64,000 bases of DNA. It comes from Escherichia phage Murica. The stretch lies in sequence record NC_041871.1; one strand, written 5' to 3'. Shown piece by piece: positions 24,404-61,044 of this stretch. Numbering within the stretch: position 1 is the first letter of the stretch; each line of letters opens with the position of its first letter. Under the pieces are notes generated by a model, which was not told where the DNA came from, ran no database searches, and saw only the letters and a list, made by a program, of their open reading frames with translations. Made by a program: the position numbers and the translations under genes.

Positions 24404-25960
24404 TTAATTTTCCATGTTGGATATGGAATTATCTCTGGTTGATGACATCTTAGAAGTGCCGTTACCAGTGGATCCTGCAGCCATTCCATCACCAGCTCTA
24501 CTGATGTCCTGGCCCAAGAGCTTCATCAGCTCTTCCTGATCCATGTCCTCGTCAAATCTTTCATCAAACCCACCTACTTCAAGAATCTTATTAATTACTG
24601 CAGGAGTTTTTGGCAAGTAACCTACAGCACCGATCCTCTGGACAAACTTGGAGAAGCTCTCCATGTCCACCTCTTCAATCAGACCAGGTTTCAGTTTAGG
24701 CATATCATCATCTTCAAGGATGATACCATTCAATGCCAGAAGTTGTGGAATAAGATCTTTGTTGAAGGCTTCAGTGATAATATCTATATCACGCTGAACA
24801 AAATGACCATGGATAGACTGTTTTGACTCAGACAGAGAGAAGGATCCAACGTTATCGTTACCGAGGTTAATAAAGCCAGCACCGAAACGGTCAAGAATCG
24901 CCTTCTTACGGGCATCAATCAAATCTTTAGTGGAATACTGCTTACCCATACCGTCAACCCCCTTCAGGGTCATGGAGTAAAGCTCTTTACCAGACTTATC
25001 TCTATCAGACGGAAGTATAAAGAAACTTTGCTCACCACTATGGGCGTTTGCTGCGTCAAGCATAAGGTCTGCAACCATTCTCCCCTCCATTGAATTCGGG
25101 TCAATGCTGGCCTTGTTCAAAATATTGGAAGGAATTTTCAGCTCAAGCACACCACCAAGGTCTTTGGAACAGCCAACAACCTCAAGGTTTTCAATCAGAA
25201 CTTTCTCACGGAAAGATCTGTAGCAACCTATCATAGGTGACACACCTGCAGGGTTAGATTCTGTTCCTGACAGGGTCATGAGCATAAGCTTTTTAGCAGG
25301 GATGAAAATTTCAGGCTCATTAAAGCCTTTTGAAGGCATTGCAGCAAGAGGTCCAGCCCAGCGTGCATTCTGAGTGTTTAGAAATGCATTAGGTGACTGA
25401 TAAATACCTGTCAGTGTTCTACTGTTCTTGTCAAAGACAAACGGCTCTGATCTGGACAAACTGGCCTGAGGTCGGAATGCAATTTTATCAATAAGAAGCA
25501 TCCCGGCGTATTTACCTTCTTTCTCTCTGCGGTATACTTTCTCAAACAGTGAAAAACCATACTCGTTAAAGGTAGCTGCGCTTCTTGCAATATCTCGAAG
25601 AGTTTGTTGGTTTGCCAAATTACGCAAAGAATACTCTATAAGCTCTGCAGCTTTCTTAGAGTCTTCACTTTTAACATTATAAAGGATCTTAAAATCATTG
25701 AATGCTTTCGTGATGAAAACATATTTTGTATCTAAGGCAGTAGCAACTGTGGAATCACATTTCATAGTCTCCACTGTAGCAATCAGCTGAGGCCAACGCA
25801 ATTCCTCAACCATCATAGATTGCGATTCTGCCATAATTTGGGAAAGTGCGCCAGAACCGATCTCACTCATACGAACATTATGAGTTGGTGCGCCTGCGTT
25901 CCCAGATTTATTCACAGTTTTGGCTGTGGCGTTGTGTTTCCTGCGGTTCTTTTTGGACAC
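24404..25960 (-). CDS. portal protein
   Basis: 518-aa ORF immediately downstream of the large terminase; GTG start with GAGGGG RBS. Confidence 0.65.
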   Translation of the reverse strand: MSKKNRRKHNATAKTVNKSGNAGAPTHNVRMSEIGSGALSQIMAESQSMMVEELRWPQLIATVETMKCDSTVATALDTKYVFITKAFNDFKILYNVKSEDSKKAAELIEYSLRNLANQQTLRDIARSAATFNEYGFSLFEKVYRREKEGKYAGMLLIDKIAFRPQASLSRSEPFVFDKNSRTLTGIYQSPNAFLNTQNARWAGPLAAMPSKGFNEPEIFIPAKKLMLMTLSGTESNPAGVSPMIGCYRSFREKVLIENLEVVGCSKDLGGVLELKIPSNILNKASIDPNSMEGRMVADLMLDAANAHSGEQSFFILPSDRDKSGKELYSMTLKGVDGMGKQYSTKDLIDARKKAILDRFGAGFINLGNDNVGSFSLSESKQSIHGHFVQRDIDIITEAFNKDLIPQLLALNGIILEDDDMPKLKPGLIEEVDMESFSKFVQRIGAVGYLPKTPAVINKILEVGGFDERFDEDMDQEELMKLLGQDISRAGDGMAAGSTGNGTSKMSSTRDNSISNMEN

Positions 25961-26062
25961 AAGCTTTACCCCTCAAAACAGTATAACAAAATAGCCCTCG
26001 TGTTAGAGGGCTAGTATCTCCGATTACTCTATTCTACCACATCTAATTAAGATTGGCAACAC

Positions 26063-27610
26063 TTAGATAAAACGCTTGAACATAGAAGGTGATGAGATTG
26101 ATGGAATCACACAAGGAAGTGCTACCTCCTCTTTCTCCAGGAAATTAATCGCAGAAGCTACACAGTCTGCCCAGTCGTCTTTTCTGTTAAATGTTGATCT
26201 TTCTCCGTTGAATTTTTCAAGTTCAGTCAGAAATGCTTCCAGAGTATCAGGATGGAAACTGGATTTTACAATCCTCACCATTCCTTGTTGTGCAAGATTG
26301 GCAAAAGGTGAGAACCTTGTCAGTTTAGATTTGTTGGAAGGCATTGGGTCTTCTTCAACCCTGAACCCTTCGGCGAGCAAGGATCTGGATGAGGTTAAGA
26401 ACTCACTCTTACCTGCCTGACCAGGGTCCACAGAGAATACGATTATGCAATCATCACCATCAAACTGCGCCTGTTTCCTGATGATCACATCTCGTTCACC
26501 AGCCTTTTTACAGAACTTGCCTTCCAGACCTGTGGAATACCTCCCGTCATCCACGTTCTCAGGACAATAATCACCGGACAGGTAATAAAAGCCGTCGCTA
26601 TCTTTACTTACCTTAATACTGGCGGTAAAGTCAGGAAATTTATTACCGGAAGTTCTCTCGGTTCCTGCCTTATCCCATGCCCTGCAAGATACTGATCCAA
26701 TGGGTACTCTATCGGCATCACGAAGGAAAGATCTTTGAAAATAGTTTGCACCCTCAGGCTTTGCAAACCAGTTACCATGAAGAAGCTGAGCTTTTTCCAG
26801 TTCCGGCAGACCTTCAAGGAAAGCAAGGTATTCTGGGTTGTCTCTTAAGCAGACAGGATTATCGAATATTGTTGCGCCTATAAACGAGAATGACAACGGT
26901 CTTGGCTTGATCTCTACGCCAAGTCCGTTAACCGTGGTGTATTTCTCTATCAACTCTTCTTTAGAGTCTCCCCAGATAAATTCACCGTCGCGTCGGATAA
27001 AATATCTTTTCTTACCGCATTTCTCCGGATCTGGATACCCTTCATCGTCCAACCACCATCTAACCAGTTTGGCAAGCATGTGTTCTGAATCGGGGTTACA
27101 GCTGATAACCATTCTTGATGGATACTTTGACTGAGATCGCAGACGAGACATCAGATAGTCTATCTGCTCCCATTCGAACTGCGTGCCCTCATCGAAGCAA
27201 ACCATGGTGTACTCAAGCCCCTGATGGTTAAGCTTATCTTGTACATACTCCATATGGCAGTATTTTACAACAGCTCCCTTTTTGCTTCTATCCCACTTAC
27301 CAGTGTTCGGATCAAACCGTGGAAAAATGAACTTATGATCCTTCTCTCTGAACTTTGGCTTAATGTTTTCAGGCAGATCACTGTAAATAGCTACTGCTTT
27401 AGGCCATAGTCCACCCTCACCTTCCAACTGTGGGGTTGTTCTTCGGAACATAACCACAGAGCTGTGGGGGTCATCAATAATTTTAAGTGGCATCAACTGC
27501 AAGAGGAACGACTTGCCAGACCCTGCGGCACCGCCGATTACCAAAATATCTGCATCGTTTTCTAGGATCATCTTCTGCTTTTCAGAACACGGTCCGTAAA
27601 TCTTAGACAT
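26063..27610 (-). CDS. terL: terminase large subunit
   Basis: 515 aa; N-terminal Walker A GGAAGSGKS, ATPase then nuclease-domain organisation; strong RBS. Confidence 0.85.
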   Translation of the reverse strand: MSKIYGPCSEKQKMILENDADILVIGGAAGSGKSFLLQLMPLKIIDDPHSSVVMFRRTTPQLEGEGGLWPKAVAIYSDLPENIKPKFREKDHKFIFPRFDPNTGKWDRSKKGAVVKYCHMEYVQDKLNHQGLEYTMVCFDEGTQFEWEQIDYLMSRLRSQSKYPSRMVISCNPDSEHMLAKLVRWWLDDEGYPDPEKCGKKRYFIRRDGEFIWGDSKEELIEKYTTVNGLGVEIKPRPLSFSFIGATIFDNPVCLRDNPEYLAFLEGLPELEKAQLLHGNWFAKPEGANYFQRSFLRDADRVPIGSVSCRAWDKAGTERTSGNKFPDFTASIKVSKDSDGFYYLSGDYCPENVDDGRYSTGLEGKFCKKAGERDVIIRKQAQFDGDDCIIVFSVDPGQAGKSEFLTSSRSLLAEGFRVEEDPMPSNKSKLTRFSPFANLAQQGMVRIVKSSFHPDTLEAFLTELEKFNGERSTFNRKDDWADCVASAINFLEKEEVALPCVIPSISSPSMFKRFI

Positions 27611-28397: not shown

Positions 28398-28667
28398 TTA
28401 TCGAGGCACTCGGTGGATGATTCTAACAGTAACTGCGTTTTCATTCATCAAGTATGCATCTACATCTCTGTAAATATAAAACTTCTGCTCACTATCAACA
28501 ACACAAGCTACCGCCCCTTCAGAGTTGTCTTCAAAAAAGACCACCACTGCATCGCAGCTGAGTTCATGATATGACTCTCGAAGATTTACAGCCAGAGGAT
28601 TGAAATCGTCACGAAAATCTACGGTATGGGTTGGATTTACACGCTCTACAATTTTAAGTGTATACAT
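28398..28667 (-). CDS. hypothetical protein
   Basis: ORF track 28398..28757 trimmed to ATG at 28665-28667 (AAGGAAC RBS); the longer form would overlap tRNA-Pro. Confidence 0.45.
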   Translation of the reverse strand: MYTLKIVERVNPTHTVDFRDDFNPLAVNLRESYHELSCDAVVVFFEDNSEGAVACVVDSEQKFYIYRDVDAYLMNENAVTVRIIHRVPR

Positions 28668-28713
28668 TTTAAAGGTTCCTTTTGTTTGTATATGTTTAAA
28701 GTATAACTGAAAG

Positions 28714-28790
28714 TGGTCTCCACGGAGTGATTCGAACACTCGACCTCCTGATCCCAAATCAGGCGCTCTACCAAGCTGAGCTACGCGGAG
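28714..28790 (-). tRNA. tRNA-Pro (anticodon UGG)
   Basis: cloverleaf folded by hand: 7-bp acceptor, T-loop TTCGAAT, anticodon loop TTTGGGA, encoded CCA. Confidence 0.8.
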
Positions 28791-28801
28791 TATTTATTAT
28801 T

Positions 28802-28876
28802 TGGTGGCCCTGGGTGGAATTGAACCACCGTCTGGCGATTATGAGTCGCTTGCTTGAACCTTCCAGCTACAGGGCC
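28802..28876 (-). tRNA. tRNA-Met (anticodon CAU; could be lysidine-modified Ile)
   Basis: acceptor GGCCCTG/CAGGGCC, anticodon loop CTCATAA, T-loop TTCAATT, encoded CCA. Confidence 0.75.
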
Positions 28877-28877
28877 T

Positions 28878-28953
28878 TGGTGCTGATGGCAGGACTTGAA
28901 CCTACAACCTATTGATTACAAATCAATTGCACTACCGATTGTGCTACATCAGC
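28878..28953 (-). tRNA. tRNA-Thr (anticodon UGU)
   Basis: acceptor GCTGATG/CATCAGC, anticodon stem ATTGA/TCAAT with loop TTTGTAA, T-loop TTCAAGT, CCA. Confidence 0.8.
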
Positions 28954-28960
28954 AAAAAGG

Positions 28961-29057
28961 TGCTAGGTGATGGAATCGAACCACCTATGTATTCAACGAC
29001 TACCTCGTCTATTTTCAGGATTAAAAATCCTCGCCCTTGCCAAAGGGCTTACCTAGC
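28961..29057 (-). tRNA. atypical 97-nt tRNA-like element (anticodon unresolved, possibly UUU; very long variable region)
   Basis: perfect 7-bp acceptor pairing GCTAGGT/ACCTAGC, canonical T-arm GGTGG-TTCGATT-CCATC and D-arm, but 65 nt between; no encoded CCA. Confidence 0.45.
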
Positions 29058-29155
29058 TCAGTATGTTGACCATGTTGCTAGTCGGCGATGACGACTGTAA
29101 CATTTGATAATCCGGTTCTGCTTCCGGCTTTCGCTTAATTACAAGGTCAACAATG

Positions 29156-29246
29156 TGGCGGAGAGTAATGGAATCGAACCATCATCGAGTCATCCTCAAC
29201 GGGACGGTTTTCAAGACCGCTTGAGCACCATTGCTCCCTACCCTCC
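29156..29246 (-). tRNA. tRNA-Ser (anticodon UGA), type II
   Basis: 91 nt, acceptor GGAGGGT/ACTCTCC, anticodon loop CTTGAAA, long variable arm, T-loop TTCGATT, CCA. Confidence 0.8.
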
Positions 29247-29360
29247 TTTATAAATTATACTGATAATGACACTGATTTTCGAGCAGTTAGTGACTAGTAT
29301 AAACGACGATAAATATCAATGCCATTATCTGTATTATTTATGCATCTAAAAATATAAATT

Positions 29361-29447
29361 TGGTGGGGAGTGGTGGAGTCGAACCACCCGAGTCGCAATG
29401 ACAATAGATTTACAGTCTACACCGCTACCTCTACGGGATAACTCCCC
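29361..29447 (-). tRNA. tRNA-Tyr (anticodon GUA), type II
   Basis: 87 nt, acceptor GGGGAGT/ACTCCCC, anticodon loop CTGTAAA, long variable arm, T-loop TTCGACT, CCA. Confidence 0.8.
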
Positions 29448-29451
29448 AATT

Positions 29452-29526
29452 TGGCACCCCGTACTGGACTCGAACCAGTGTCAACGGCTTAGAAGGCCGC
29501 TGCTTTATCCACTAAGCTAACAGGGC
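29452..29526 (-). tRNA. tRNA-Arg (anticodon UCU)
   Basis: 75 nt, anticodon loop CTTCTAA, T-arm ACTGG-TTCGAGT-CCAGT, acceptor with two G-U pairs, CCA. Confidence 0.75.
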
Positions 29527-29622
29527 ACTGGGTGGCTTTCTTTTACACCTTAGCCGCCAGAAAAGGTGGGAGACCATGTTTACAATATTACACTGTTAAG
29601 CAAAGTTTGTCAAGAAAATATT

Positions 29623-29961
29623 TTAGCTATTGCTAACAGGCTGTATTTCTGTAGTAAATGGCATAAAAGGTGCTGGTTTTTCAGCCTCTTCCACTACCAC
29701 CTCTTCCTCTTCACCAAACATCTCATCATATTCTTCCTGCATTCGGTCTGCCTTATCAAGAACATACTCTGCAATGCTTTGACGAATATTTTGTTTGGTT
29801 TTCGGGTCCAACATCAGCTCTCTTAAAACTTTGTGAGCTTCTGGAACCATCGCTATAAAAGATTCCTTCATATCAAGGATGTTCTTCTCTAGCTGAATGG
29901 CGTTGGACTCCTCTTTCAGAGGTCTGCCTCTACGGCGACGCTTTTTAGTTGTATCCGCCAT
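29623..29961 (-). CDS. small protein with N-terminal AT-hook-like basic motif (KKRRRRGRP) and acidic C-terminus
   Basis: ORF track 29623..30081 trimmed to the ATG at 29959-29961, preceded by GGAGGAAAC. Confidence 0.45.
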   Translation of the reverse strand: MADTTKKRRRRGRPLKEESNAIQLEKNILDMKESFIAMVPEAHKVLRELMLDPKTKQNIRQSIAEYVLDKADRMQEEYDEMFGEEEEVVVEEAEKPAPFMPFTTEIQPVSNS

Positions 29962-32439: not shown

Positions 32440-32994
32440 TTACTCCCTGCTGTCAATATCAAAACTCATTGCAATACGGTATGCCTCTTCTAATGGTAAG
32501 AGTCTCCCCCACACATCCCAACCGACATCAAGCTGCCTGCCAAACAACTGTTGTGTGGTTCCGTGAGCATGACCGAACAGTTGGACTGATCCGTGAGGCT
32601 TTCTGTTCCACTTTGCAAACTGGTAATGGCTCATACAGATCAAATTCTTGTTGTGGCGAAGCTCGTAATAATCTACAACCTCATGACCGAACTCTTTCAT
32701 AATTCTGACAGTCGTCCTTGTGTCATGGTTGCCACGAACAAGAATAATATGTCCGTTCAACATATTTAGAATATCTGGAAGTAAGTTGTTGATATTCTTA
32801 TCATTAGTGCACGCAATATCTCCCAGGTGGAACACAGTGTCTGCAGGTGACACAACGGAGTTCCACTCGGTGATGATTCCCGCATTCATACTGTCAAGAT
32901 TGTGATCATATTGAGATCTGTGTTTTTGACATGAATCAAACTCCATGACCCGCTGGTGGAGAAAGTGCGTATCGCTTGTTACAAAGTATTTCAT
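32440..32994 (-). CDS. calcineurin-like metallophosphoesterase (putative polynucleotide 2',3'-phosphatase)
   Basis: motifs SDTHF, GDIACT and GNHD; ORF track 32440..33099 trimmed to ATG at 32992-32994 with GAGGAA RBS. Confidence 0.65.
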   Translation of the reverse strand: MKYFVTSDTHFLHQRVMEFDSCQKHRSQYDHNLDSMNAGIITEWNSVVSPADTVFHLGDIACTNDKNINNLLPDILNMLNGHIILVRGNHDTRTTVRIMKEFGHEVVDYYELRHNKNLICMSHYQFAKWNRKPHGSVQLFGHAHGTTQQLFGRQLDVGWDVWGRLLPLEEAYRIAMSFDIDSRE

Positions 32995-33001
32995 ACATTC
33001 C

Positions 33002-33412
33002 TCATTTAAGTTTAATGCAGTTTTTAAGCTGGCGTTCCATACGATCCACAACCTTGTCTGGAACATCATGAATGCTTTTATTACCGTGGCGGTTTTCAAC
33101 CACGATTACGGTATAACTATACCCATGACTGATTGCCATGTCAACATATTCCTGCACATGTTTTTCTTTTGTAAACGTATTACTTACCACGATACGGTCG
33201 TATCCCATACGCATCATATCTTCTACGTTATCTTTGCACCATTTTGCTGCGAGTGTTACTTTACTTGCATCCCAGTTGTAATTGCCGTCATCGTCATACC
33301 AAAACATGTCATTCTCAAAATGTGGATACAGACCTTCTAAAGATAGCGCATTTGCCAGTGTTGATTTGCCAGACCCTGGCAGACCACGCACGATATATAG
33401 CATTTTAGACAT
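33002..33412 (-). CDS. P-loop polynucleotide 5'-kinase-like protein
   Basis: Walker A GLPGSGKST at the N-terminus; ORF track 33002..33469 trimmed to ATG at 33410-33412 with GGAGGATTGCT RBS. Confidence 0.6.
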   Translation of the reverse strand: MSKMLYIVRGLPGSGKSTLANALSLEGLYPHFENDMFWYDDDGNYNWDASKVTLAAKWCKDNVEDMMRMGYDRIVVSNTFTKEKHVQEYVDMAISHGYSYTVIVVENRHGNKSIHDVPDKVVDRMERQLKNCIKLK

Positions 33413-33440
33413 AGCAATCCTCCGTTTTAATTTTAATGAT

Positions 33441-33469
33441 AGTATACCTAACTGTTTTGTTAATTTCAA
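33441..33469 (-). promoter_or_regulatory. minus-strand early promoter (TTGAAA-17-TATACT) for the kinase/phosphatase operon
   Basis: -10 TATACT is the complement of 33441-33446, -35 TTGAAA of 33464-33469; RBS and ATG follow. Confidence 0.5.
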
Positions 33470-33472
33470 GTG

Positions 33473-33501
33473 TTGACACTAGGTTATTTGTGTGGCAGGA
33501 T
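33473..33501 (+). promoter_or_regulatory. plus-strand early promoter (TTGACA-17-TGTGG-CAGGAT, extended -10-like)
   Basis: consensus -35 TTGACA at 33473-33478; TG-containing element before a weak -10; back-to-back with the minus promoter. Confidence 0.4.
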
Positions 33502-33530
33502 AGACTGACAAAATGACAAATGAGGAACGT

Positions 33531-34448
33531 ATGATGAAGTATTTTAATGCAGATGACCTAGTAGACAAAGGTCTTGTAACCAGTCGGTATTATCCAGATC
33601 TTGGATTAAAGATCTATAAATATGCCAGAAAAGTATTCTACAACGATCTGTGGCATTTGTCTCCGCGTTTACTGGAGTGCCGAGGTATTGTTGTTGGCAA
33701 TGAGGGGAATGTTGTGGCATGGCCTTTCACAAAAGTATTCAACTTAGGAGAAAACTCCACCAACCTACCGGACAGTAAACTTGTTACTGCGGTAGAGAAA
33801 AAGAACGGATTCCTCGGTGTGGTATCATCTCATAAAGGTGAACTATTGTTCTCAACAACCGGGTCTCTTGATTCCCCATATTGTAACCTCGCAAAAGAAA
33901 CCATCAGGGAGCAATGTGGTAATTTAGATCTTATCAAGAAGGTTATGGGCAATGAAAACATGACATTCATGTTTGAAATTTGCCACCCTTCAGATCCGCA
34001 TATTGTTCAGGAAGATCATGGCGCATATTTGATAGGTTGCAGATATAATGATTCTGGAATAATGCTACCAGAAGCAGCTTTAGATGGGATTGCCAAATAC
34101 CTTGGTGCAAAACGTCCTCACACTGTGCGTGAAATTCCGTTCAGCTATGCAAAAGAATTAGCTGCAGAAACAAGAGGTGAAGGGTATATGATTCGTAAGC
34201 CTTACTACCCTTATGATCTGCAGCTGAAGATCAAGTCTCCATACTATCTGGCACGGAAGGCAGTAATGAGGGGTAAAGCTTGGAAGATTTGGGATGATGA
34301 TATCTTTAAACGTGTTGACGAAGAGTTTTACGGTATGGTAAAATTTATTCGTAGCAACTATACAGAAGATGTGTGGAATTGCTTATTAGAGCAGGAGCGT
34401 CGTGAGATACTGGACTACTATTTCCACAACGAGGACTATATGCAATGA
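33531..34448 (+). CDS. RNA ligase, T4 RnlA (Rnl1)-like
   Basis: N-terminal pattern LLECRGIVV...WPFTKVFNLGEN recalled as matching T4 RNA ligase 1; KxNG nucleotidyl-transferase motif (EKKNGF); start chosen at ATGATG after GAGGAA (track start 33513). Confidence 0.65.
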   Translation: MMKYFNADDLVDKGLVTSRYYPDLGLKIYKYARKVFYNDLWHLSPRLLECRGIVVGNEGNVVAWPFTKVFNLGENSTNLPDSKLVTAVEKKNGFLGVVSSHKGELLFSTTGSLDSPYCNLAKETIREQCGNLDLIKKVMGNENMTFMFEICHPSDPHIVQEDHGAYLIGCRYNDSGIMLPEAALDGIAKYLGAKRPHTVREIPFSYAKELAAETRGEGYMIRKPYYPYDLQLKIKSPYYLARKAVMRGKAWKIWDDDIFKRVDEEFYGMVKFIRSNYTEDVWNCLLEQERREILDYYFHNEDYMQ

Positions 34449-34795
34449 AGAAGTGGATTGTGTGGCTGGATGATTTGAGAGATCCGTCAAATTATGGACT
34501 CCCAGACGCTATTTGGCTGAAGAATTCCTCAGAGTTTATGGATTTTATTAACGATAAGGGAAAGCTCTACAGACGCGTTTCTGAGTGGCATATGGACAAC
34601 GACCTAGGAGAAGTATTCGAAGGATACGATTGCCTATCCATGTTGGAGGAAAAATTTGTATTCGGTAAGCCTCCAGTGATTGACAACGTGAAGATTTTCG
34701 TACATACTTCTAATCCATCGGCAGCTCGTAAATTTATGCTTGCTGCTGACTCATTCAAGAAGTTTGGAATAGAGATTAAACAAAACATCTACTGA
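34445..34795 (+). CDS. hypothetical small protein (possible receiver/flavodoxin-like fold)
   Basis: 116 aa, coupled to the ligase stop; pattern WLDD...D-DLG...HTS loosely resembles a CheY-like receiver domain. Confidence 0.35.
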   Translation: MKKWIVWLDDLRDPSNYGLPDAIWLKNSSEFMDFINDKGKLYRRVSEWHMDNDLGEVFEGYDCLSMLEEKFVFGKPPVIDNVKIFVHTSNPSAARKFMLAADSFKKFGIEIKQNIY

Positions 34796-44849: not shown

Positions 44850-45270
44850 TGCAAAAGCTTTTGGTGAGACAGCGGTACAAAGAGGCCAGGCGATGGGACT
44901 GGCACTACCTTTCGTCTTAAAAGAGCACTTTACAGATTTTCAACTTATCAAAGGTGATAAGGGAATGCTTATCCTGGAGCATAAGTTGAGTAAGAAACGC
45001 TACAAAGTTGTTTTTAATTCTAAAGCCCCAACAAAACTTGGATTCAGAACTTACAATCTCAACCCATCCTATACTAAGGGTGTTGGAAGGGTAGAACAAC
45101 AGCATTTCAGCGCTAGAGCTTCTTTAGCTCCTTTGATGCTAAATTTCTCAGGGGTGGCTTTAGGATACCTTGATAAGAAAAGAGTTCTTCATGTCCGTTT
45201 CACAGACTTTGTAACGCTTTTAGCTAACAACGAAGTTGATGAAAAGGGACGTGTAAAAACAAACTTCTAA
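44812..45270 (+). CDS. hypothetical protein
   Basis: 152-aa ORF with GGAGAC RBS. Confidence 0.4.
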   Translation: MIKSIDLTKELTDAKAFGETAVQRGQAMGLALPFVLKEHFTDFQLIKGDKGMLILEHKLSKKRYKVVFNSKAPTKLGFRTYNLNPSYTKGVGRVEQQHFSARASLAPLMLNFSGVALGYLDKKRVLHVRFTDFVTLLANNEVDEKGRVKTNF

Positions 45271-56993: not shown

Positions 56994-58043
56994 ATGAATT
57001 TAACACCTCGCAGAACCATGGTACACGGCATGAAAGAAAAACAGAACGGTTTCGAACCTATGAGTAATAAAATGTTTGGTATGCCGGGCGGTATCATGGA
57101 AACATACAGCTACCCAACACCTGTTGTTGACCACGTTCTTTATATCGACGATTTGGAAGACTTACAAGATCATATGTCTCGCCTGCAGACGATCCGTATG
57201 GCTCAGCCTGAAGAAAGCATTCGAGTGATCATTAACAGCCCTGGTGGTTGCGTGCACATTGCGATGGCTTATCTGCAGGCATTCCGCGAGTCTCAGGCAA
57301 GCGTTGTTGCACATGCTGAAGGAATGTGCTGCTCTGCGGGAACAATCTTATGGCTGGGTTGCAAAGAACGCACTGTGGCTCCGGACACAGAGTTTATGTT
57401 CCACTACTATCAAGGTGGCACTTATGGTAACGGTGTGAACATGAATACTCAGGTCAGCTACTGGAAAAAACGTTTTGAACGCCTGATTGAAAAATACTAC
57501 GGTGGGGTGCTGACAGAAGATGAGATCGCATCCATCACAGCTGGTGGCGAAGTGTGGTTGGACGGAGAAGAGCTGGCAGCACGCACTGGAGCTATTATTC
57601 TGGATGAAGGCAACATACAACGCATCCAGAACGGACAAAAACCGAAAAAGCTTCTGGCAAAAGGTGATGAAGAAGGCGTGTTAGGTGAAGCAGGTCTCCC
57701 GGAGATTCACCAGTGCACATCTTTAGATGAGTTAGTTCATGCTGTTGAATCTGCAAAAGCGGGTGGTTCGAAAGGTGATGTTCACACTGTGTTCCTGAAT
57801 CTGCAGATGGAAAGTGGCGAGACCGTCAGAATTGCCCTGGGTGAGATTACTTCAGAAGATCTGCAGAGATTCTCTGTCGTTGAACTTCAGGATATTCTGT
57901 CTCAATTGAAGACTACTCTGAACGGCGGTGAAGAGGTTAAGGTGAAAGATAAGACTCGCAAGCGTCTGGTGGACAATATTATTAAAACAGCAAAAGAGCT
58001 CAATGAAAAAATCCTGGGTGCAGGAATTGTCGAAGAAGCTTAA
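56994..58043 (+). CDS. ClpP-family serine protease-like protein with C-terminal extension
   Basis: IINSPGG, GMCCSAG (Ser) and MFH (His) motifs in ClpP order within the first 180 aa; about 170 aa of extra charged C-terminal sequence. Confidence 0.6.
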   Translation: MNLTPRRTMVHGMKEKQNGFEPMSNKMFGMPGGIMETYSYPTPVVDHVLYIDDLEDLQDHMSRLQTIRMAQPEESIRVIINSPGGCVHIAMAYLQAFRESQASVVAHAEGMCCSAGTILWLGCKERTVAPDTEFMFHYYQGGTYGNGVNMNTQVSYWKKRFERLIEKYYGGVLTEDEIASITAGGEVWLDGEELAARTGAIILDEGNIQRIQNGQKPKKLLAKGDEEGVLGEAGLPEIHQCTSLDELVHAVESAKAGGSKGDVHTVFLNLQMESGETVRIALGEITSEDLQRFSVVELQDILSQLKTTLNGGEEVKVKDKTRKRLVDNIIKTAKELNEKILGAGIVEEA

Positions 58044-58057
58044 ACATTAATTCTAAA

Positions 58058-58079
58058 GCCCTCTTCGGAGGGCTTTTAT
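58058..58079 (+). terminator. rho-independent terminator
   Basis: AGCCCTC-TTCG-GAGGGCT followed by TTTAT. Confidence 0.6.
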
Positions 58080-58094
58080 GATCTGGAGATTTGC

Positions 58095-58628
58095 ATGACT
58101 TGTGCTAGAAAACCTGATGAACAACGTAACGCCTACGATGAGTATGTGACACCGGAGTGGTGTGCAGAAGGGCTGTATGACCTTATTCAGTTCCCAGAAG
58201 ACTGGACCTACTTAGAGCCTTGCAGGAATAGTGCCTCAGGTGTGTTCTACTCCCGTATGCCGTTAGGATCTGCATGGGGAGAAATACAAGAAGGTGTTGA
58301 CTATCTGAATACAGAATACAACCATGTTGACTGTATTATCACCAACCCACCATACAGCCTGGCTCGTGAGTTTGTAGACAAGGCGTTGAAAGATGCTGAC
58401 GTAGTTATTATGCTTTTGCGTCTTAATTTTCTGGAAAGCAAAGCCAGATTTGAATGGTGGCTTGATAATGCACCTACTACTGTGATCACAATATCTAAGC
58501 GTCCATCATTTCAATCAAACGGCAGAACTGACGGGCAAGCATATGCATATTTTGTGTGGGATAAGAAAAACCGTTTAGACTTGCCGCCGTTTATGTGGTT
58601 GGCACCCCCAGAGGTAGACCTGAAATGA
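58095..58628 (+). CDS. small N6-adenine methyltransferase-like protein (NPPY motif)
   Basis: 177 aa with TNPPY motif IV. Confidence 0.5.
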   Translation: MTCARKPDEQRNAYDEYVTPEWCAEGLYDLIQFPEDWTYLEPCRNSASGVFYSRMPLGSAWGEIQEGVDYLNTEYNHVDCIITNPPYSLAREFVDKALKDADVVIMLLRLNFLESKARFEWWLDNAPTTVITISKRPSFQSNGRTDGQAYAYFVWDKKNRLDLPPFMWLAPPEVDLK

Positions 58629-58909
58629 AAATGAGTGCTAAGGACAAATTACACCATCTAGCGCTAAAACGCCCTGTAACGCTCCCTGACGAACTTAACT
58701 CCATTTATGATGCGATTGTAGGGGAGATACAAAATAAAGCGTTAGCAGGCTTTCTGGGGTGCGGATTTTCGATAAATCTACCCTCGCATCTCTCAGATTA
58801 CTTCCCGCACATTGTTGGAGATTTAAGGGCAGGAGGTCTGCAGGTAGATGTTGTTGGCATCTCCCCAGAGAAAAATAATACGGTTGCCTACTTGACAGTA
58901 ACCTGGTAG
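58625..58909 (+). CDS. hypothetical protein
   Basis: ATG overlapping the preceding stop (ATGA), RBS GAGGTAGACC. Confidence 0.35.
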   Translation: MKMSAKDKLHHLALKRPVTLPDELNSIYDAIVGEIQNKALAGFLGCGFSINLPSHLSDYFPHIVGDLRAGGLQVDVVGISPEKNNTVAYLTVTW

Positions 58910-58945
58910 TTGTGTATTGTTGTTTTCAACAAGAGGGGGTCATTT

Positions 58946-59185
58946 ATGTACAAGTCATTTTCAATCTACTCAAGACAGGCGAAACACTACACAGAGATCC
59001 TGATCACTCAGAAAAAATCTGTGGAAGGTGAGTGGGAATATCACCATAAAATGTTGCGTCCAGACTGGGTTTTTGATAGACTTATTGCTATGATCCCTCT
59101 CGGAGAAGTATACCCTCTGACAGCCCATCGCGATGCTTGGGATTTAATTGATTACATAGATTCATTTAAGGAGCCTAGATTATGA
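58946..59185 (+). CDS. hypothetical protein
   Basis: ATG after AAGAGGGGG (track start 58910 is TTG). Confidence 0.35.
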   Translation: MYKSFSIYSRQAKHYTEILITQKKSVEGEWEYHHKMLRPDWVFDRLIAMIPLGEVYPLTAHRDAWDLIDYIDSFKEPRL

Positions 59186-59580
59186 AGATTGAGATTACTA
59201 AAGAAGGTAAGAAAGTGTCCGGCAACTATGCAACAGTAATTCGGGATTTAATGTTTGAAGCCACCAAGATCGGTACATCTAAAGTTGGTCAAACTGTTAG
59301 TGTGAAAAGTAATATCTCCACAGGAGAGAAGGTATTCATTGTGGTCAAAGGGCAGGATCCCGTGGAAGGAACAGTGGGCCGAGGTGGCTACCTGTGCATT
59401 TCTGAAGAGCCGCGTATGTTAGTGGCTGACGCTACTATGGGTGGGAAACGTGTGTGCGAGGCGGATGAGGTAATGATTATCCAACCTGTTGATCCAGATG
59501 ACCCAGCAACTTGGGTGGTAGGAAATGAAATCTTCTCTTTAGAAGAGTTATCCTTCCCAGCACCGCGCTCTGTTCAGTAA
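59182..59580 (+). CDS. hypothetical protein
   Basis: 132-aa ORF with AAGGAG RBS. Confidence 0.4.
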   Translation: MKIEITKEGKKVSGNYATVIRDLMFEATKIGTSKVGQTVSVKSNISTGEKVFIVVKGQDPVEGTVGRGGYLCISEEPRMLVADATMGGKRVCEADEVMIIQPVDPDDPATWVVGNEIFSLEELSFPAPRSVQ

Positions 59581-59617
59581 TAATTTATCTTACCAGGGAC
59601 GGTAGGTAGGAGGTAGC

Positions 59618-59851
59618 ATGAAAGTTAAATTTCTTACAGATTTAGGGTACCCTTCCTTGGTTGACTGTGTTGGTAAAATTGTGGAAGCAAAACGGCTATC
59701 TGCAAACGAGAATGTTGTCCTGGTTAAAGGGAAGGATTTACTAGCTGCAGGTGCAGAGTCTGGCAGGATCTCTCCTGATTATATGTATTACCTATCTTTA
59801 AGTAATCTGCCAGAGCGAGGCGGTAAAGGCCTTGAAGTTGTGGAGGAGTGA
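59618..59851 (+). CDS. small protein, member of a three-copy paralogous family (MKVK-L...DLLAAGA)
   Basis: 77 aa; shares N-terminal MKVKxL and central G(K/A)DL(I/L)AAGA motif with 63180..63404 and 63394..63648. Confidence 0.45.
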   Translation: MKVKFLTDLGYPSLVDCVGKIVEAKRLSANENVVLVKGKDLLAAGAESGRISPDYMYYLSLSNLPERGGKGLEVVEE

Positions 59852-59856
59852 CAGGT

Positions 59857-60381
59857 ATGCTTCTGATTAACTGGGAAGACCTCTATGGGGACAAAGACCC
59901 TGTTGCGTTTGTTGATCGTAGGTGGAGATACACTGAAGAACAACTGGCGGCAAAAAATTTAACTGCAAAACGCAGAAAGATCATCCAGTGCAAGTACAAA
60001 TACGCACAGTTTGCTGCAAAAGTGTCTCCACAAATCGAGAGCTTTGTGCTTAAATTGTATGACGAGTACCTCAAATTCAAATTGGATTTTGTGCAGGTGT
60101 ACCGTGCACAGGTACGACCAGATACCAACATATGTAGATGGAAGGTTGTTTGTGAAGGTAAAGATTTGCCGCTCAGCTTGACAATTGAGTGGCGTTATGG
60201 GTATCATGAGTGTGGTCTGTATGATATTTGGGATGTCATTGTAGATCCTGCTAAGCATCTGAACACAGAGGAGCTGGAATATATCAATAAGGTTATTCTC
60301 GATATGTTTTTCAGCTACACACATGAAAACTCTGAGAAAGAACGGGATAATTTTCTTGACACCCTCAGCGACCATTTGTAG
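59857..60381 (+). CDS. hypothetical protein
   Basis: ATG after GGAGGAG (track start GTG 59848). Confidence 0.4.
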   Translation: MLLINWEDLYGDKDPVAFVDRRWRYTEEQLAAKNLTAKRRKIIQCKYKYAQFAAKVSPQIESFVLKLYDEYLKFKLDFVQVYRAQVRPDTNICRWKVVCEGKDLPLSLTIEWRYGYHECGLYDIWDVIVDPAKHLNTEELEYINKVILDMFFSYTHENSEKERDNFLDTLSDHL

Positions 60382-60411
60382 TATACAATTTAACCTACAA
60401 AGGGAGGACCA

Positions 60412-60639
60412 ATGAGTATAAATGTTGTGCTAATAGGTTACCTGGTAATGTCCGTTATAACAGCGGTATTCTTGACAGGTGTATGCATCGTGTCCAGACG
60501 AAGGGTGAAGTTTGATGATTTTATCACCATCATCACTGCTGCACCTTTTTGGCCTGTTGTTATCTTCATCGTAATAATGTGCCTAGTTGATTACTACAAG
60601 AATATCAGGAAGGAGAGTAGGGATGGAGACCGCACCTAA
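60412..60639 (+). CDS. small membrane protein (two predicted TM helices)
   Basis: 75 aa with two hydrophobic stretches; RBS AGGGAGG. Confidence 0.4.
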   Translation: MSINVVLIGYLVMSVITAVFLTGVCIVSRRRVKFDDFITIITAAPFWPVVIFIVIMCLVDYYKNIRKESRDGDRT

Positions 60640-60858
60640 AACTATCTATACTGTTCTTAAAGAGATTGCGTTCTACGCAGATCTTAGCCAGGCACCTTTA
60701 TGGGAAAAGAGCATGTATTTAAAATGGTGCGTTAATTTAGGGAGACCTTCCAGTGTTTCAAGCCATGTTTATTGAGATGCTATCTGGGATATTGTTACTA
60801 GTAGCCATCTTAGGTGGTGCAGTTCTGATGTATAACTATCTTGAAAAAGGAGACAGCA

Positions 60859-61044
60859 ATGGTAAAAAATAAATCTTTAGAGCAGGCTGAAAACCTTCTC
60901 CACGAGCTGGTAAAGGAGTGGAAAGTTGAATACTCAGATTTTAATGCACGAGAGGGTGAAGATTATTGGCCTACGGAGCGCTCAGAGGGCGAATGGTATC
61001 AAGATTTTATAGAGTGGTTATATCAGACGTGCGATGAGGGGTGA
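60859..61044 (+). CDS. hypothetical small acidic protein
   Basis: ATG after AAAAGGAGACAGCA (track start TTG 60841). Confidence 0.35.
   Translation: MVKNKSLEQAENLLHELVKEWKVEYSDFNAREGEDYWPTERSEGEWYQDFIEWLYQTCDEG

Follow-up and report, generated by a model that had tools for sequence, protein, structure and literature searches.

Results

The tRNA operon and its irregular member

The window analysed here, a stretch of 64,000 nucleotides from Escherichia phage Murica (NC_041871.1), carries a tRNA operon, its promoter and an RNA-repair cassette, with the following features:

28714..29526, minus strand: tRNA operon with Arg(UCU), Tyr(GUA), Ser(UGA), the element studied here, Thr(UGU), Met or Ile2(CAU) and Pro(UGG) (ARAGORN, Rfam)
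29585..29613, minus strand: sigma-70-type promoter TTGACA-17-TAATAT, upstream of tRNA-Arg; P(tRNA) in the rV5 RefSeq record
32440-33099, minus strand: metallophosphoesterase (Pfam)
33002-33469, minus strand: P-loop kinase (Pfam)
33513-34448, plus strand: Rnl1-type RNA ligase (Pfam)
34445-34795, plus strand: cREC_REC (Pfam)

The cassette (32440..34795), in which GenBank names an RNA ligase, a polynucleotide kinase and a phosphoesterase, lies 3.4-5.7 kb from the element. An earlier note on this DNA had described an atypical tRNA-like element within the tRNA cluster. We confirm it in this coliphage of the rV5 type at 29057-28961 on the minus strand, with a length of 97 nt up to the discriminator A73 (28961) and of 99 nt including the encoded CC at 28960-28959. 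Its parts are:

28959..29057, minus strand: whole five-arm tRNA-like gene (ARAGORN; Rfam tRNA, 35.5 bits; family model R1, 101 bits, E = 2.6e-23)
29051..29057, minus strand: acceptor stem, 5' strand GCUAGGU, forming 7 perfect bp with ACCUAGC at 28962-28968
29033..29048, minus strand: D arm, 6-bp stem GCCCUU/AAGGGC and 4-nt loop UGGC, tRNA-Sec-like in shape
29017..29031, minus strand: anticodon-like arm, 15 nt, AGGA(U)-UUUUUAA/UUUUA-(A)UCCU
29010..29016, minus strand: conserved 5' linker GAAAAUA, single-stranded, with no pairing in any MFE fold
28995..29009, minus strand: extra hairpin (fifth arm) GACGA-GGUAG-UCGUU, 5 bp, varying in sequence and length across the family
28986..28994, minus strand: 3' linker GAAUACAUA, in which AUACAUA, followed by the GG of the T stem, is nearly invariant family-wide
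28969..28985, minus strand: T arm GGUGG-UUCGAUU-CCAUC, 100% paired
28961..28968, minus strand: acceptor stem, 3' strand ACCUAGC (28968-28962), and discriminator A73 (28961)

The D arm is preceded by A8 and A9 (29050-29049), and the anticodon-like arm is bordered by an invariant G on each side (29032 and 29016). The latter arm can pair in two ways, as 4 bp with a 7-nt loop (UUU at 29025-29023) or as 5 bp with a 5-nt loop. The variable region, which contains the extra hairpin, amounts to 31 nt before the T stem and reaches about 41 nt in relatives. The earlier note had correctly recognised the perfect acceptor stem, the canonical T arm (28985-28969), a plausible D arm (GCCC(UU)-UGGC-(AA)GGGC, 29048-29033), the anticodon-like hairpin with a 4-bp stem (AGGA-UUUUUAA-UCCU, 29031-29017) and the long extra region with its 5-bp hairpin (29009-28995). 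The long gap between position 8 and the T stem is real and counts 64 nt, not 65. All six neighbouring tRNAs encode the full CCA and the element does not, as stated; its triplet is incomplete, the 3' end reading A73-CC-U with two of the three bases present.

Software calls and single-sequence folding

ARAGORN and Rfam agree on the boundaries of the element; neither gives a conventional tRNA with other boundaries, and what lies between them is unconventional in structure. ARAGORN labels 28959-29057 'tRNA-???' with the 4-nt anticodon AUCC, and the Rfam tRNA model, which has to place a 26-nt insertion in the variable region, matches above its gathering score (35.5 against 29 bits, E = 2e-5). The MFE fold of the window copy is a five-arm cloverleaf (z = -3.66), and none of 200 shuffles folds as well. 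A tmRNA, that is, a tRNA-Ala-like end with a tag reading frame, is reported at the element by neither program. ARAGORN misses five of six element types. Among five homologues scanned with Rfam none matched the tRNA model, three matched tRNA-Sec only, below threshold, and two gave no match.

The four-base-anticodon fold proposed by ARAGORN was rejected: the A-U stem that it requires pairs in 34.7% of cells, a value that shuffles match, and the fold is disrupted in Av-05 and cannot form in any of the other types. The intron mode of the program was discarded as well, as it returned contradictory Gln, Gly or Leu calls with 5-18-nt 'introns' for different homologues.

Distribution and annotation of the family

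Distinct homologues number 31 and come from five Vequintavirinae genera, one N4-like phage and metagenomes; 189 phage records match the element (about 190 rV5-related genomes). Each locus searched holds one high-scoring match (at least 96 bits), always in a tRNA array and on the tRNA strand, and the unrelated N4-like phage carries the same single copy within its tRNA array. Model R1 separates members (82-124 bits) from ordinary tRNAs (at most 31 bits), with a truncated hybrid in phage V18 at 33.5. V18 has no intact copy, and the element must therefore be dispensable under at least some conditions. A linked protein partner was sought and none was found, the copy in the N4-like phage being flanked by tRNA genes only.

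Searches for a bacterial or prophage origin gave no matches when 185,579 bacterial species genomes were scanned for the exact pattern, and blastn of 5,426 E. coli genomes matched only the neighbouring spacer, never the element. A relic copy in lambda beside the shared spacer was considered and dismissed, the TGAATTCATTAG match being too weak and model R1 finding nothing at the lambda locus. Homology to the T4 RNAs rnaC and rnaD was likewise rejected: model R1 matches neither of them, only T4 tRNA-Thr and tRNA-Leu, and these weakly.

Across records the element is annotated not at all or as tRNA-Lys (with codon AAA in some GenBank records), tRNA-OTHER, tRNA-TERM or tRNA-???. The rV5 genome paper lists six tRNAs and omits it, and it is not among the tRNAs tested in the PrrC rescue study. 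Rfam holds no model for the five-arm family, and our literature search met no report of expression, processing, aminoacylation or phenotype for the element from any phage. The family is so far undescribed.

Conservation and covariation of the five-arm fold

Comparison with the clusters of related phages, which the earlier note had suggested, reveals that the fold is kept by compensatory changes in the homologues. Across 31 related sequences, in which counts do not represent independent events, 99.1% of pair cells are paired and 13 pairs carry double changes. None of 500 shuffles reaches these values, and slid controls are 34-47% paired. All seven pairs of the acceptor stem are paired in every sequence, five of them having changed on both sides. 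The D stem is 100% paired with three double-changed pairs, and the anticodon-like stem 95.5% paired, again with three, its closing pair covarying between C-G and U-A. Moreover, the tertiary pair between D loop and T loop covaries, being G19:C56 in 20 sequences and U19:A56 in 11 (the D-loop G is column 18). A8 is invariant in the family, and U14 and U15 pair with A21 and A20. The five arms are recovered in the MFE fold of every member; the extra hairpin, in a few of them weak or joined by linkers, shows A-U to G-C changes between rV5 and Av-05. Substitutions among near-identical rV5-type copies sit in loops or preserve pairs.

The 3' linker is the most conserved segment (mean pairwise identity 0.98); the T arm stands at 0.90 and the 5' linker at 0.89 (columns 43-48, 29015-29010, the flanking G 29016 being column 42), against 0.55 in the anticodon-like loop and 0.35 in the extra arm. 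A mutual-information scan found no covarying partner for the 3' linker. The same scan returned only known pairs and clade effects, and a pseudoknot, linker-linker pairing or loop-to-extra-arm pairing was not adopted. An AUGU/ACAU linker pairing is restricted to Henunavirus-type copies, and a UGGA/UCCA complementarity is absent in Mydovirus-type copies. Host tRNAs contain nothing similar to the conserved linkers GAAAA(A)U and AUACAUAGG, a feature which tRNA mimicry, discussed below, leaves unexplained.

From this comparative evidence we conclude that the element is a real gene, maintained by selection, whose product is a tRNA-shaped RNA, and that it is a member of a conserved five-arm family in Vequintavirinae tRNA arrays. 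Its core is tRNA-like in the acceptor stem (7 bp), the T stem (5 bp) and the contact between D loop and T loop. A tRNA with a recent insertion, one of three options raised earlier, is not supported, as linkers and hairpin occur in all 31 homologues, from five genera and a second phage family.

The anticodon-like arm

The anticodon-like arm measures 15 nt here and 14-16 nt in the family, as against the canonical 17. Since its closing pair covaries, a 5-bp stem with a 5-6-nt loop is indicated. The loops found are CAUCCA, CCACCA, CAGCCA, CCUCCA, CUUCCA, CAUCAAA, UAUCAAA, GUGAUA, UUUAUAA and UUUUUAA. U33 is restricted to the rV5/Av-05 type and one variant, most lineages having A or C there. The discriminator is A only in the rV5 lineage, U in nearly all others and C in two sequences. 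A73 and U34-U36 make up the LysRS identity set; the combination of the Lys-like loop UUUUUAA with A73 occurs only in the rV5 lineage, and no further tRNA-Lys is encoded by rV5. Relative to rV5, Av-05 carries the change U35A (UAU, with U73) and retains the fold by compensatory changes, and lineages outside the rV5 type have loops unlike the Lys anticodon loop. In Mydovirus and Seunavirus, the loci that carry the element include canonical tRNAs for Gly(UCC) and for Lys (UUU and/or CUU) as well, and the related phages examined, with about 24 tRNAs each, have normal tRNA-Gly and tRNA-Lys beside it. Copies with NCC-containing loops show Gly-compatible features (U73, G1:C72, C2:G71, C35, C36); a Gly identity was not adopted, as they have a pair other than G:C at 3:70 and A or C in position 33.

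Because the loop varies by lineage and mostly lacks U33, and because relatives hold ordinary tRNA-Lys and tRNA-Gly, standard decoding appears unlikely for the family. We infer a non-decoding RNA from the comparison of arms that are 1-2 nt short, of A or C at position 33 and of a loop centre that shifts between close relatives. In rV5 itself, opening of the U-A closing pair would give a perfect Lys-type loop of 7 nt, with U33 and A37; such a loop, the co-change to A73 and the lack of any other tRNA-Lys fit a real, unusual tRNA-Lys equally well. The unusually long variable region proposed earlier is apt as a description; a simple class II-like decoder it does not make, because the arm is below 17 nt, mostly without U33, and changes between lineages. 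Among the three earlier options a tRNA-derived, non-decoding RNA seems to fit best.

Discussion

Comparison with known RNA classes

The five-arm family is to be classed among the irregular tRNA-like RNAs. It shares with canonical elongator tRNAs (RF00005) the 7-bp acceptor stem, the 5-bp T stem, the 7-nt T loop UUCRANY and the L-shape contact of D-loop G19 with T-loop C56. Elongator tRNAs, however, have U8, A14, a 3-4-bp D stem and a 7-11-nt D loop, whereas the element has A8, a 6-bp stem and a 4-nt loop; their 17-nt anticodon arm (5 bp and a 7-nt loop, U33, purine 37) is not matched by the element, and their variable region is 4-5 nt (class I) or 10-24 nt (class II) compared with 31 nt. Like class II tRNAs (Leu, Ser, Tyr), the element has a long variable region with a hairpin between anticodon and T arms. 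The class II arm, of 10-24 nt, starts right after position 45, whereas that of the family spans 31-41 nt with long conserved unpaired flanks, and class II D and anticodon arms are unlike those of the element. UUU, if the loop is read as 7 nt, and A73 are shared with tRNA-Lys(UUU), but the anticodon is not conserved among the orthologues.

The D arm recalls tRNA-Sec (RF01852), which has the same 6-bp D stem, 4-nt loop, absence of U8 and A14 and long extra arm. Rfam aligns the D arm of the homologue pEa55 to that of tRNA-Sec, and among Rfam models tRNA-Sec also scores highest on Henunavirus and N4-like copies, with 39-40 bits (family maximum 40; gathering score 47). Bacterial tRNA-Sec nevertheless has an 8/5 branch (13 bp) instead of 7/5 and G73, where the family has A or U (C in two sequences); the window copy has no UCA, and no selenoprotein machinery is involved. 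Allo-tRNAs and irregular tRNA-Sec-like tRNAs offer a further likeness in their long D stem with tetraloop, long extra arm and diverse anticodons, and some of them are 'five-stem-junction' variants, some apparently have no use in translation and some lie in polycistrons of irregular tRNAs (PMC5389517, Mukai et al. 2017). They are, however, defined by an 8/4 or 9/3 branch, which is ruled out here, A8 being unable to pair with C65 and no base lying between T and acceptor strands. Moreover, their extra arm begins at the junction instead of between 6-9-nt conserved single-stranded linkers, they come mainly from soil bacteria, whereas the family is found only in lytic enterobacterial phages, and the 5-7-nt anticodon-like loop of the family, mostly without U33, sets it apart from them.

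Among phage RNAs, T4 species 1 and 2 (rnaC, rnaD) are also small RNAs of a phage tRNA operon for which the T4 record gives no function, and species 1 has a canonical T arm at its end beside an extra hairpin; the cloverleaf with full D arm and anticodon arm is absent from both, and the folds differ. Phage tRNAs are known to counter PrrC, PARIS, retron-Eco7 and Septu (PMC11555353; PMC13096335; PMC10264068). These anti-defence tRNAs (T5 tRNA-Lys against PARIS and PrrC; T5/T6 tRNA-Tyr against retron-Eco7 and Septu) share with the element the setting in a phage tRNA array, neighbours that match nuclease targets, the Lys(UUU)-like loop in the case of rV5 and departures from host tRNAs concentrated in anticodon and variable arms. 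In contrast, they are normal 75-85-nt cloverleaves with few substitutions whose rescue of infection has been shown, while the element is five-armed with a shortened anticodon arm.

Alternative explanations

A decaying pseudogene or insertion-disrupted tRNA without function would account for the irregular anticodon arm, the incomplete CCA of rV5 and Av-05, the inconsistent annotation and the loss in phage V18. The comparative data already contradict such decay: 99.1% of pairs are intact across five genera and a second family, compensatory changes are many, a tertiary pair covaries, the single-stranded linkers are nearly invariant, and near-identical rV5-type copies vary in loops or keep pairs. 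We consider decay the most improbable of the readings. Hardly more probable is a recoding tRNA, be it a frameshift tRNA with the four-base anticodon AUCC, a tRNA-Sec, or a suppressor of the allo-tRNA or SelC* type. The ARAGORN call, the tRNA-Sec-like D arm with the Rfam scores of the Henunavirus and N4-like copies, and the loop CAUCAAA of these copies, which contains UCA together with U73 as does SelC* tRNA-Cys(UCA), point in this direction; but the A-U stem required for AUCC pairs at shuffle level and is broken in Av-05, the acceptor/T branch is 7/5 and not 8/5, 8/4 or 9/3, the scores stay below the tRNA-Sec gathering score, A33 replaces U33, and UCA is missing from the window copy.

Two alternatives carry more weight. 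The element may be a true, charged tRNA-Lys(UUU), its variable region greatly enlarged, that replaces host tRNA-Lys cut by PrrC, RloC or PARIS AriB and whose scaffold resists cleavage. The loop UUUUUAA contains U33, A37 and A38, and over U33-C40 the sequence agrees with that of E. coli tRNA-Lys; only the rV5 lineage has exchanged U for A at the discriminator, and rV5 has no other tRNA-Lys while relatives with a non-Lys loop carry a canonical one. The tRNA-Lys (AAA) annotation of some records, the Rfam tRNA score above gathering and the adjoining Thr(UGU), the other main PARIS target, agree with this. Yet the arm is 2 nt below canonical, the covarying U-A closing pair would leave a 5-nt loop, and in the MFE fold even less of it stays open; loops elsewhere in the family have 5-6 nt or A33, no class II variable arm resembles the 31-nt five-way junction, and CCA is incomplete. 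Since Av-05, with UAU and U73, still conserves the structure, selection is independent of Lys identity, and on balance we regard a charged tRNA-Lys as rather unlikely. Slightly more credible, if still improbable, is a tRNA-like RNA with a role outside defence: an element for transcript processing or stability, an RNA that titrates or regulates one of the host proteins that bind tRNA (RNase P, CCA enzyme, a synthetase, EF-Tu or a modification enzyme), or a non-ribosomal aminoacyl donor. Precedents exist in the roles proposed for some allo-tRNAs and B. cereus tRNA-Other, in irregular five-stem tRNA-like RNAs outside translation (PMC5389517) and in the stable RNAs species 1 and 2 that the T4 tRNA operon also encodes. 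The near-invariant linkers suggest sequence-specific recognition by some partner, and because no protein gene is linked to the element, even after transfer into the N4-like phage, this partner would be a host factor or the RNA itself. On the other hand, a pure processing signal would have no need of a conserved D/T tertiary contact, a CCA end or two maintained hairpins, the element abuts ordinary, helper-independent tRNAs in most genera, and no candidate partner was identified.

A tRNA mimic as the preferred reading

As the best explanation overall we tentatively favour a selected, five-arm tRNA-shaped RNA without an ordinary decoding role. Its most likely mechanism, in which we have somewhat less confidence, would be that of a tRNA mimic: as a decoy or competitive inhibitor the RNA may engage host factors that bind tRNA, the most plausible being defence nucleases that cut it. 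Judging from position and shape, the RNA would be transcribed from the promoter of the tRNA operon, RNase P would cleave its 5' end, exonucleases would trim the 3' trailer to ACC, and the host CCA-adding enzyme would add the final A. The two fast-evolving hairpins would then serve as specificity modules on a scaffold of invariant core and linkers. In the rV5 lineage the arm may have been remodelled into a look-alike of tRNA-Lys(UUU) by UUUUUAA and A73, and the targets would be Lys-directed nucleases such as PrrC, RloC or PARIS AriB. Published targets of PARIS AriB (PMC12409363) correspond to the flanking tRNAs Thr(UGU) and Pro(UGG) and to the loop that resembles Lys(UUU). The mimic would complement the replacement tRNAs of the phage and its RNA ligase/kinase repair cassette. 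A dedicated tRNA-like RNA that serves as a decoy for tRNA nucleases has no precedent in the literature we searched; a decoy has been raised only as a possibility, for a normal tRNA-Tyr (PMC13096335). It is a speculative and unlikely further step that the element is the founding example of a new class of anti-defence RNA, a modular mimic whose L-shaped core and linkers would provide tRNA-like maturation and stability and whose two hairpins would be retargeted in each lineage to trap or block tRNA-cleaving nucleases, in rV5 those specific for tRNA-Lys.

In about 190 therapeutic-type phage genomes (rV5, PVP-SE1-like, Klebsiella Mydovirus) the element stands unannotated or contradictorily labelled. 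Phage tRNA genes have recently been recast as counter-measures to tRNA-cutting immunity by PrrC, PARIS, retron-Eco7 and Septu, and in the five-arm family a conserved RNA keeps the tRNA core, the normal anticodon arm having been given up. If the RNA is charged and decodes, the known structural limits of a working tRNA would widen to include a five-way junction, a shortened anticodon arm and the combination of a tRNA-Sec-like D arm with a 7/5 body. Should it prove to be a mimic or decoy, it would add an RNA-based strategy to phage anti-defence and offer a natural scaffold for engineered nuclease traps.

Results

A five-arm gene within the tRNA operon

The window belongs to a Vequintavirus (rV5-type coliphage); its stretch 28600-29650 shares 99.8% identity with Escherichia phage V5 (NC_011041, 61862-62912). 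On the minus strand ARAGORN reports six ordinary tRNAs, Pro (UGG), Met/Ile2 (CAU), Thr (UGU), Ser (UGA), Tyr (GUA) and Arg (UCU). A seventh prediction, at 28959-29057 (-), carries the label 'tRNA-???' and a four-base anticodon. In the Rfam scan the tRNA model aligns to 28961-29057 with 35.5 bits (E = 2e-5; gathering score 29), leaving a 26-nt insertion in the variable region and one anticodon-stem position unfilled. Direct reading of the minus strand gives the following parts.

Parts of the element in the window copy, minus strand, 5' to 3'
Acceptor 5' strand: GCUAGGU, then AA
D arm: GCCCUU-UGGC-AAGGGC, then G
Anticodon-like arm: AGGA-UUUUUAA-UCCU
5' linker: GAAAAUA
Extra hairpin: GACGA-GGUAG-UCGUU
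3' linker: GAAUACAUA
T arm: GGUGG-UUCGAUU-CCAUC
Acceptor 3' strand: ACCUAGC, then A, CC, U

The minimum-energy fold of this copy is exactly the five-arm shape (z = -3.66; 0 of 200 shuffles fold as well). All features listed in the earlier note are present, with two small corrections: the distance between position 8 and the T stem, put at 65 nt, is 64 nt counted from A8, and the CCA described as not encoded is indeed incomplete, with two of its three bases (CC) in the DNA.

A sigma-70-type promoter of the operon lies at 29613-29585, upstream of tRNA-Arg, and is also found in the rV5 RefSeq annotation. The same record leaves the element locus unannotated, and the rV5 genome paper reports six tRNAs without mentioning the five-arm gene (PMC3606486). 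In other GenBank records the sequence appears as tRNA-Lys (codon AAA), tRNA-OTHER, tRNA-TERM, tRNA-???(atcc) or plain 'tRNA', a patchiness explained by ARAGORN, which at default settings misses five of the six element types. Our literature search found no paper discussing the gene, and Rfam 15 scans of the window copy and five homologues found no dedicated model for the family.

Distribution of the family

Using the element and a Salmonella-phage homologue as blastn queries, we found it in 189 phage records. These comprise Vequintavirus and Avunavirus (Escherichia), Seunavirus (Salmonella, Cronobacter, Enterobacter), Mydovirus (Klebsiella, Raoultella), Henunavirus (Erwinia), further Vequintavirinae-type matches on Proteus phages and a single N4-like Schitoviridae phage, vB_SenP_UTK0002. 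Further variants came from pattern scans of IMG/VR and metagenome contigs, for a total of 31 distinct sequences. The pattern had no match in 185,579 bacterial and archaeal species (one genome per species); since the large collections were scanned with one exact pattern, more distant members may exist. In 5,426 complete E. coli genomes, blastn matched only the adjacent spacer and not the element.

A covariance model trained on 19 members scores members at 82-124 bits and every ordinary tRNA of the same loci at 31 bits or less, with one high-scoring match per locus; it sets the family cleanly apart from ordinary tRNAs. The element lies inside the tRNA array, on the tRNA strand, in all genomes examined. 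In the N4-like phage it is flanked by tRNA-Ile and tRNA-Asn with no protein gene alongside. By these comparisons it is a conserved family rather than an accident.

Structure and conservation

The cloverleaf stems and one tertiary pair were tested on two alignments. When 19 members are aligned with MAFFT, standard pairs fill 99.1% of the cells and 11 pairs show changes on both sides. The model-based alignment of 31 sequences, with which the MAFFT alignment agrees, gives 99.1% and 13 such pairs, which are not independent events because this alignment is model-fitted and its sequences are related, shared ancestry inflating covariation statistics. In 500 shuffles of the 31-sequence alignment, neither the pairing nor the covariation score nor the number of double-changed pairs ever reaches the real value, and sliding the partners by 1-3 columns lowers pairing to 34-47%. 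Each member folded singly adopts the same five arms. An alternative ARAGORN fold of the window copy, in which an all-A-U stem presents 'AUCC', is paired in 34.7% of cells, equal to shuffles, and is also broken by the single loop difference of phage Av-05; we discard this fold.

The D arm has a 6-bp stem and a 4-nt loop, the shape typical for tRNA-Sec, and position 8 is A in all members. The D-loop base equivalent to G19 covaries with the T-loop base equivalent to C56 (UGGC with UUCGAUU in 20 of the 31 sequences, UGUC with UUAGAUU in 11), which points to the usual D/T contact of an L-shaped molecule. Mean pairwise identity is 0.98 for the 3' linker, 0.90 for the T arm, 0.89 for the 5' linker, 0.78 for the D arm, 0.77 for the acceptor stem, 0.69 for the anticodon-like stem, 0.55 for its loop and 0.35 for the extra arm. 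Thus the two single-stranded linkers around the extra hairpin (5' GAAAA(A)U; 3' AUACAUA, followed by T-stem GG) are the most constrained parts; a mutual-information scan found no partner for either. Both hairpins keep their pairing while their sequence changes, and the extra arm also varies in length.

The anticodon-like arm and the 3' end

A canonical anticodon arm has 17 nt, and U33 is universal. The anticodon-like arm has 15 nt in the window copy and 14-16 nt elsewhere in the family. Its closing pair covaries (C-G in 15, U-A in 9), so that the family-consistent reading is a 5-bp stem with invariant flanking G residues and a loop of only 5-6 nt. Most Seunavirus and Mydovirus copies have the loop CAUCCA, with CCACCA, CAGCCA, CCUCCA and CUUCCA as single variants. 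Henunavirus, N4-like and some metagenomic copies have CAUCAAA or UAUCAAA, one contig has GUGAUA, Avunavirus UUUAUAA and Vequintavirus UUUUUAA. Most loops carry A or C at the U33 position. Mydovirus and Seunavirus phages with ~24 tRNA genes encode canonical tRNA-Gly (UCC) and tRNA-Lys (UUU and/or CUU) beside the element and therefore need no Gly or Lys decoding by it.

With the U-A closing pair open, the rV5 copy presents a 7-nt Lys-type loop with U33, UUU, A37 and A38, and it matches E. coli tRNA-Lys at every position between U33 and C40, both included. Discriminator A is confined to the rV5 lineage; A73 and the three anticodon U's are the LysRS identity elements. Canonical tRNA-Lys is absent from both rV5 and Av-05. 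The Av-05 element differs from that of rV5 by one loop base (UAU versus UUU) and has U73; its fold is preserved by compensatory changes, located in both acceptor stem and extra hairpin.

Nearly all other lineages encode CCA after U73; only CC remains in rV5, and Av-05 has lost the encoded CCA. The rV5 trailer CCUUUUU extends to tRNA-Thr. By analogy with known E. coli tRNA maturation, RNase P would cut at tRNA-Thr, an exonuclease would trim the trailer to ACC and the host CCA enzyme would then restore the full CCA.

Neighbouring genes and related loci

Within the operon, the A/U-rich spacer of 114 nt between tRNA-Tyr and tRNA-Ser (29247-29360, -) forms a long hairpin (z = -4.45) and contains, just upstream of tRNA-Ser, a promoter-like TCGAAA-17-TATAAT at 29282-29254. 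Some records name the CAU-anticodon tRNA (28802-28876, -) tRNA-Met, and BASEL records name it tRNA-Ile (AUA, presumed lysidine). Immediately 3' of tRNA-Ser(UGA), a stretch of 70-85 nt has a counterpart in two other phage types, with 83-90% identity:

Window 29056-29140 (-): trailer segment
Retrieved locus L058, 791-966: trailer segment
Lambda 44866-44952 (retrieved locus L004, 601-687): trailer segment

In the P1-like phages D6 and P7 a nearly identical tRNA-Ser(UGA) precedes it; the lambda copy is located between orf-64 and S, without a remaining tRNA. The segment, which contains two small hairpins, is present in 426 of the 5,426 E. coli genomes (prophages, P1-like plasmids) and appears to be a shared 'tRNA-Ser plus trailer' cassette.

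Further irregular tRNAs lie beside or near the element in relatives (retrieved loci L006, 1419-1494; L047, 3313-3387; L020, 928-997; L028, 5994-6079). They include an Ile(GAU)-like gene with C33 (loop ACGAUUC; in other phages a 6-nt loop, ACGAUA), a 70-nt 'tRNA-?(gt)' with a 6-nt loop and a tRNA-Lys(UUU) with a D-loop insertion of ~10 nt. Metagenomic phages with the Henunavirus-type element carry a CUA-anticodon tRNA (L041, 7862-7934; L051, 2791-2865), labelled 'tRNA-Pyl' by ARAGORN and possibly an amber suppressor. Over the tRNA operon (compared with window 28600-29650), about 19 'Campylobacter phage' records (GenBank MG065646-MG065677) match rV5-type coliphages at 99.6-100% identity and are probably mislabelled or contaminant E. 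coli phages. The annotated CDS of the large terminase subunit (rV5 58027-60872; ~24765-27610 in the window) is a three-piece join, and those of rV5 DNA polymerase and anaerobic NTP reductase are two-piece joins, a pattern suggestive of introns, inteins or homing-endonuclease insertions.

Genes for RNA repair form a cassette (32440-34795) at a distance of 3.4-5.7 kb from the element:

32440-33099 (-): metallophosphoesterase
33002-33469 (-): P-loop polynucleotide-kinase-like protein
33513-34448 (+): T4 Rnl1-type RNA ligase (PF09511, E = 9e-15)
34445-34795 (+): cyclic-phosphate-processing receiver (cREC_REC) protein

Discussion

The comparisons argue strongly for a real and maintained gene, encoding a tRNA-like, L-shaped RNA that belongs to a five-arm family of its own. 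Among described RNAs, those closest in kind are the irregular tRNAs resembling tRNA-Sec reported by Mukai et al., allo-tRNAs included, which combine a tRNA-Sec-like D arm, a long extra arm and diverse anticodons; some have five-stem junctions and some are apparently non-translational (PMC5389517). Allo-tRNAs are defined by an 8/4 or 9/3 branch, whereas the five-arm family has 7/5. Henunavirus and N4-like copies match the Rfam tRNA-Sec model best, at 39-40 bits (gathering score 47), but the family lacks the 13-bp branch and G73, and the window copy also lacks UCA. The T4 tRNA operon likewise encodes stable RNAs, species 1 and 2, the former ending with a tRNA-like T arm; we found no homology of the element to either.

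What the RNA does is judged here from sequence, comparison and context. Taken together, the comparisons show selection on shape, core and linkers and not on a fixed anticodon, which makes ordinary decoding unlikely for the family; the element is probably not a standard decoder. A recoding tRNA is very improbable, and a pseudogene even more so. The Lys-type loop and A73 of rV5, in a phage without canonical tRNA-Lys, keep an unusual tRNA-Lys alive as a reading; that the element is a true nuclease-resistant tRNA-Lys is nevertheless unlikely, the Av-05 relative keeping the fold with UAU and U73. Another tRNA-like regulatory or sponge role is a somewhat doubtful alternative. We tentatively prefer a tRNA mimic that would occupy or block tRNA-targeting nucleases, with the fast-evolving hairpins as specificity modules and, in rV5, an anticodon-like arm tuned to tRNA-Lys-directed enzymes.

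In phage V18 (NC_041937; retrieved locus L007, ~1177-1243) a deletion fuses the tRNA-Tyr 5' half to the 3' part of the element, removing tRNA-Ser and the spacer. The truncated hybrid retains the extra-arm 3' strand, linker, T arm and acceptor and scores 33.5 bits on the family model. The element is thus dispensable at least in V18. Accessory counter-defence genes often are dispensable.

The T4 kinase/ligase pair is established to mend PrrC-cut tRNA-Lys (cited in PMC10264068), and phage tRNAs with altered arms rescue infection (PMC11555353; PMC13096335). As there is overlap between published target lists and the few tRNAs of rV5 (Lys-like, Thr UGU, Pro UGG, Tyr GUA and others), a part for the element in the conflict over tRNAs would be the most economical, if circumstantial, guess.
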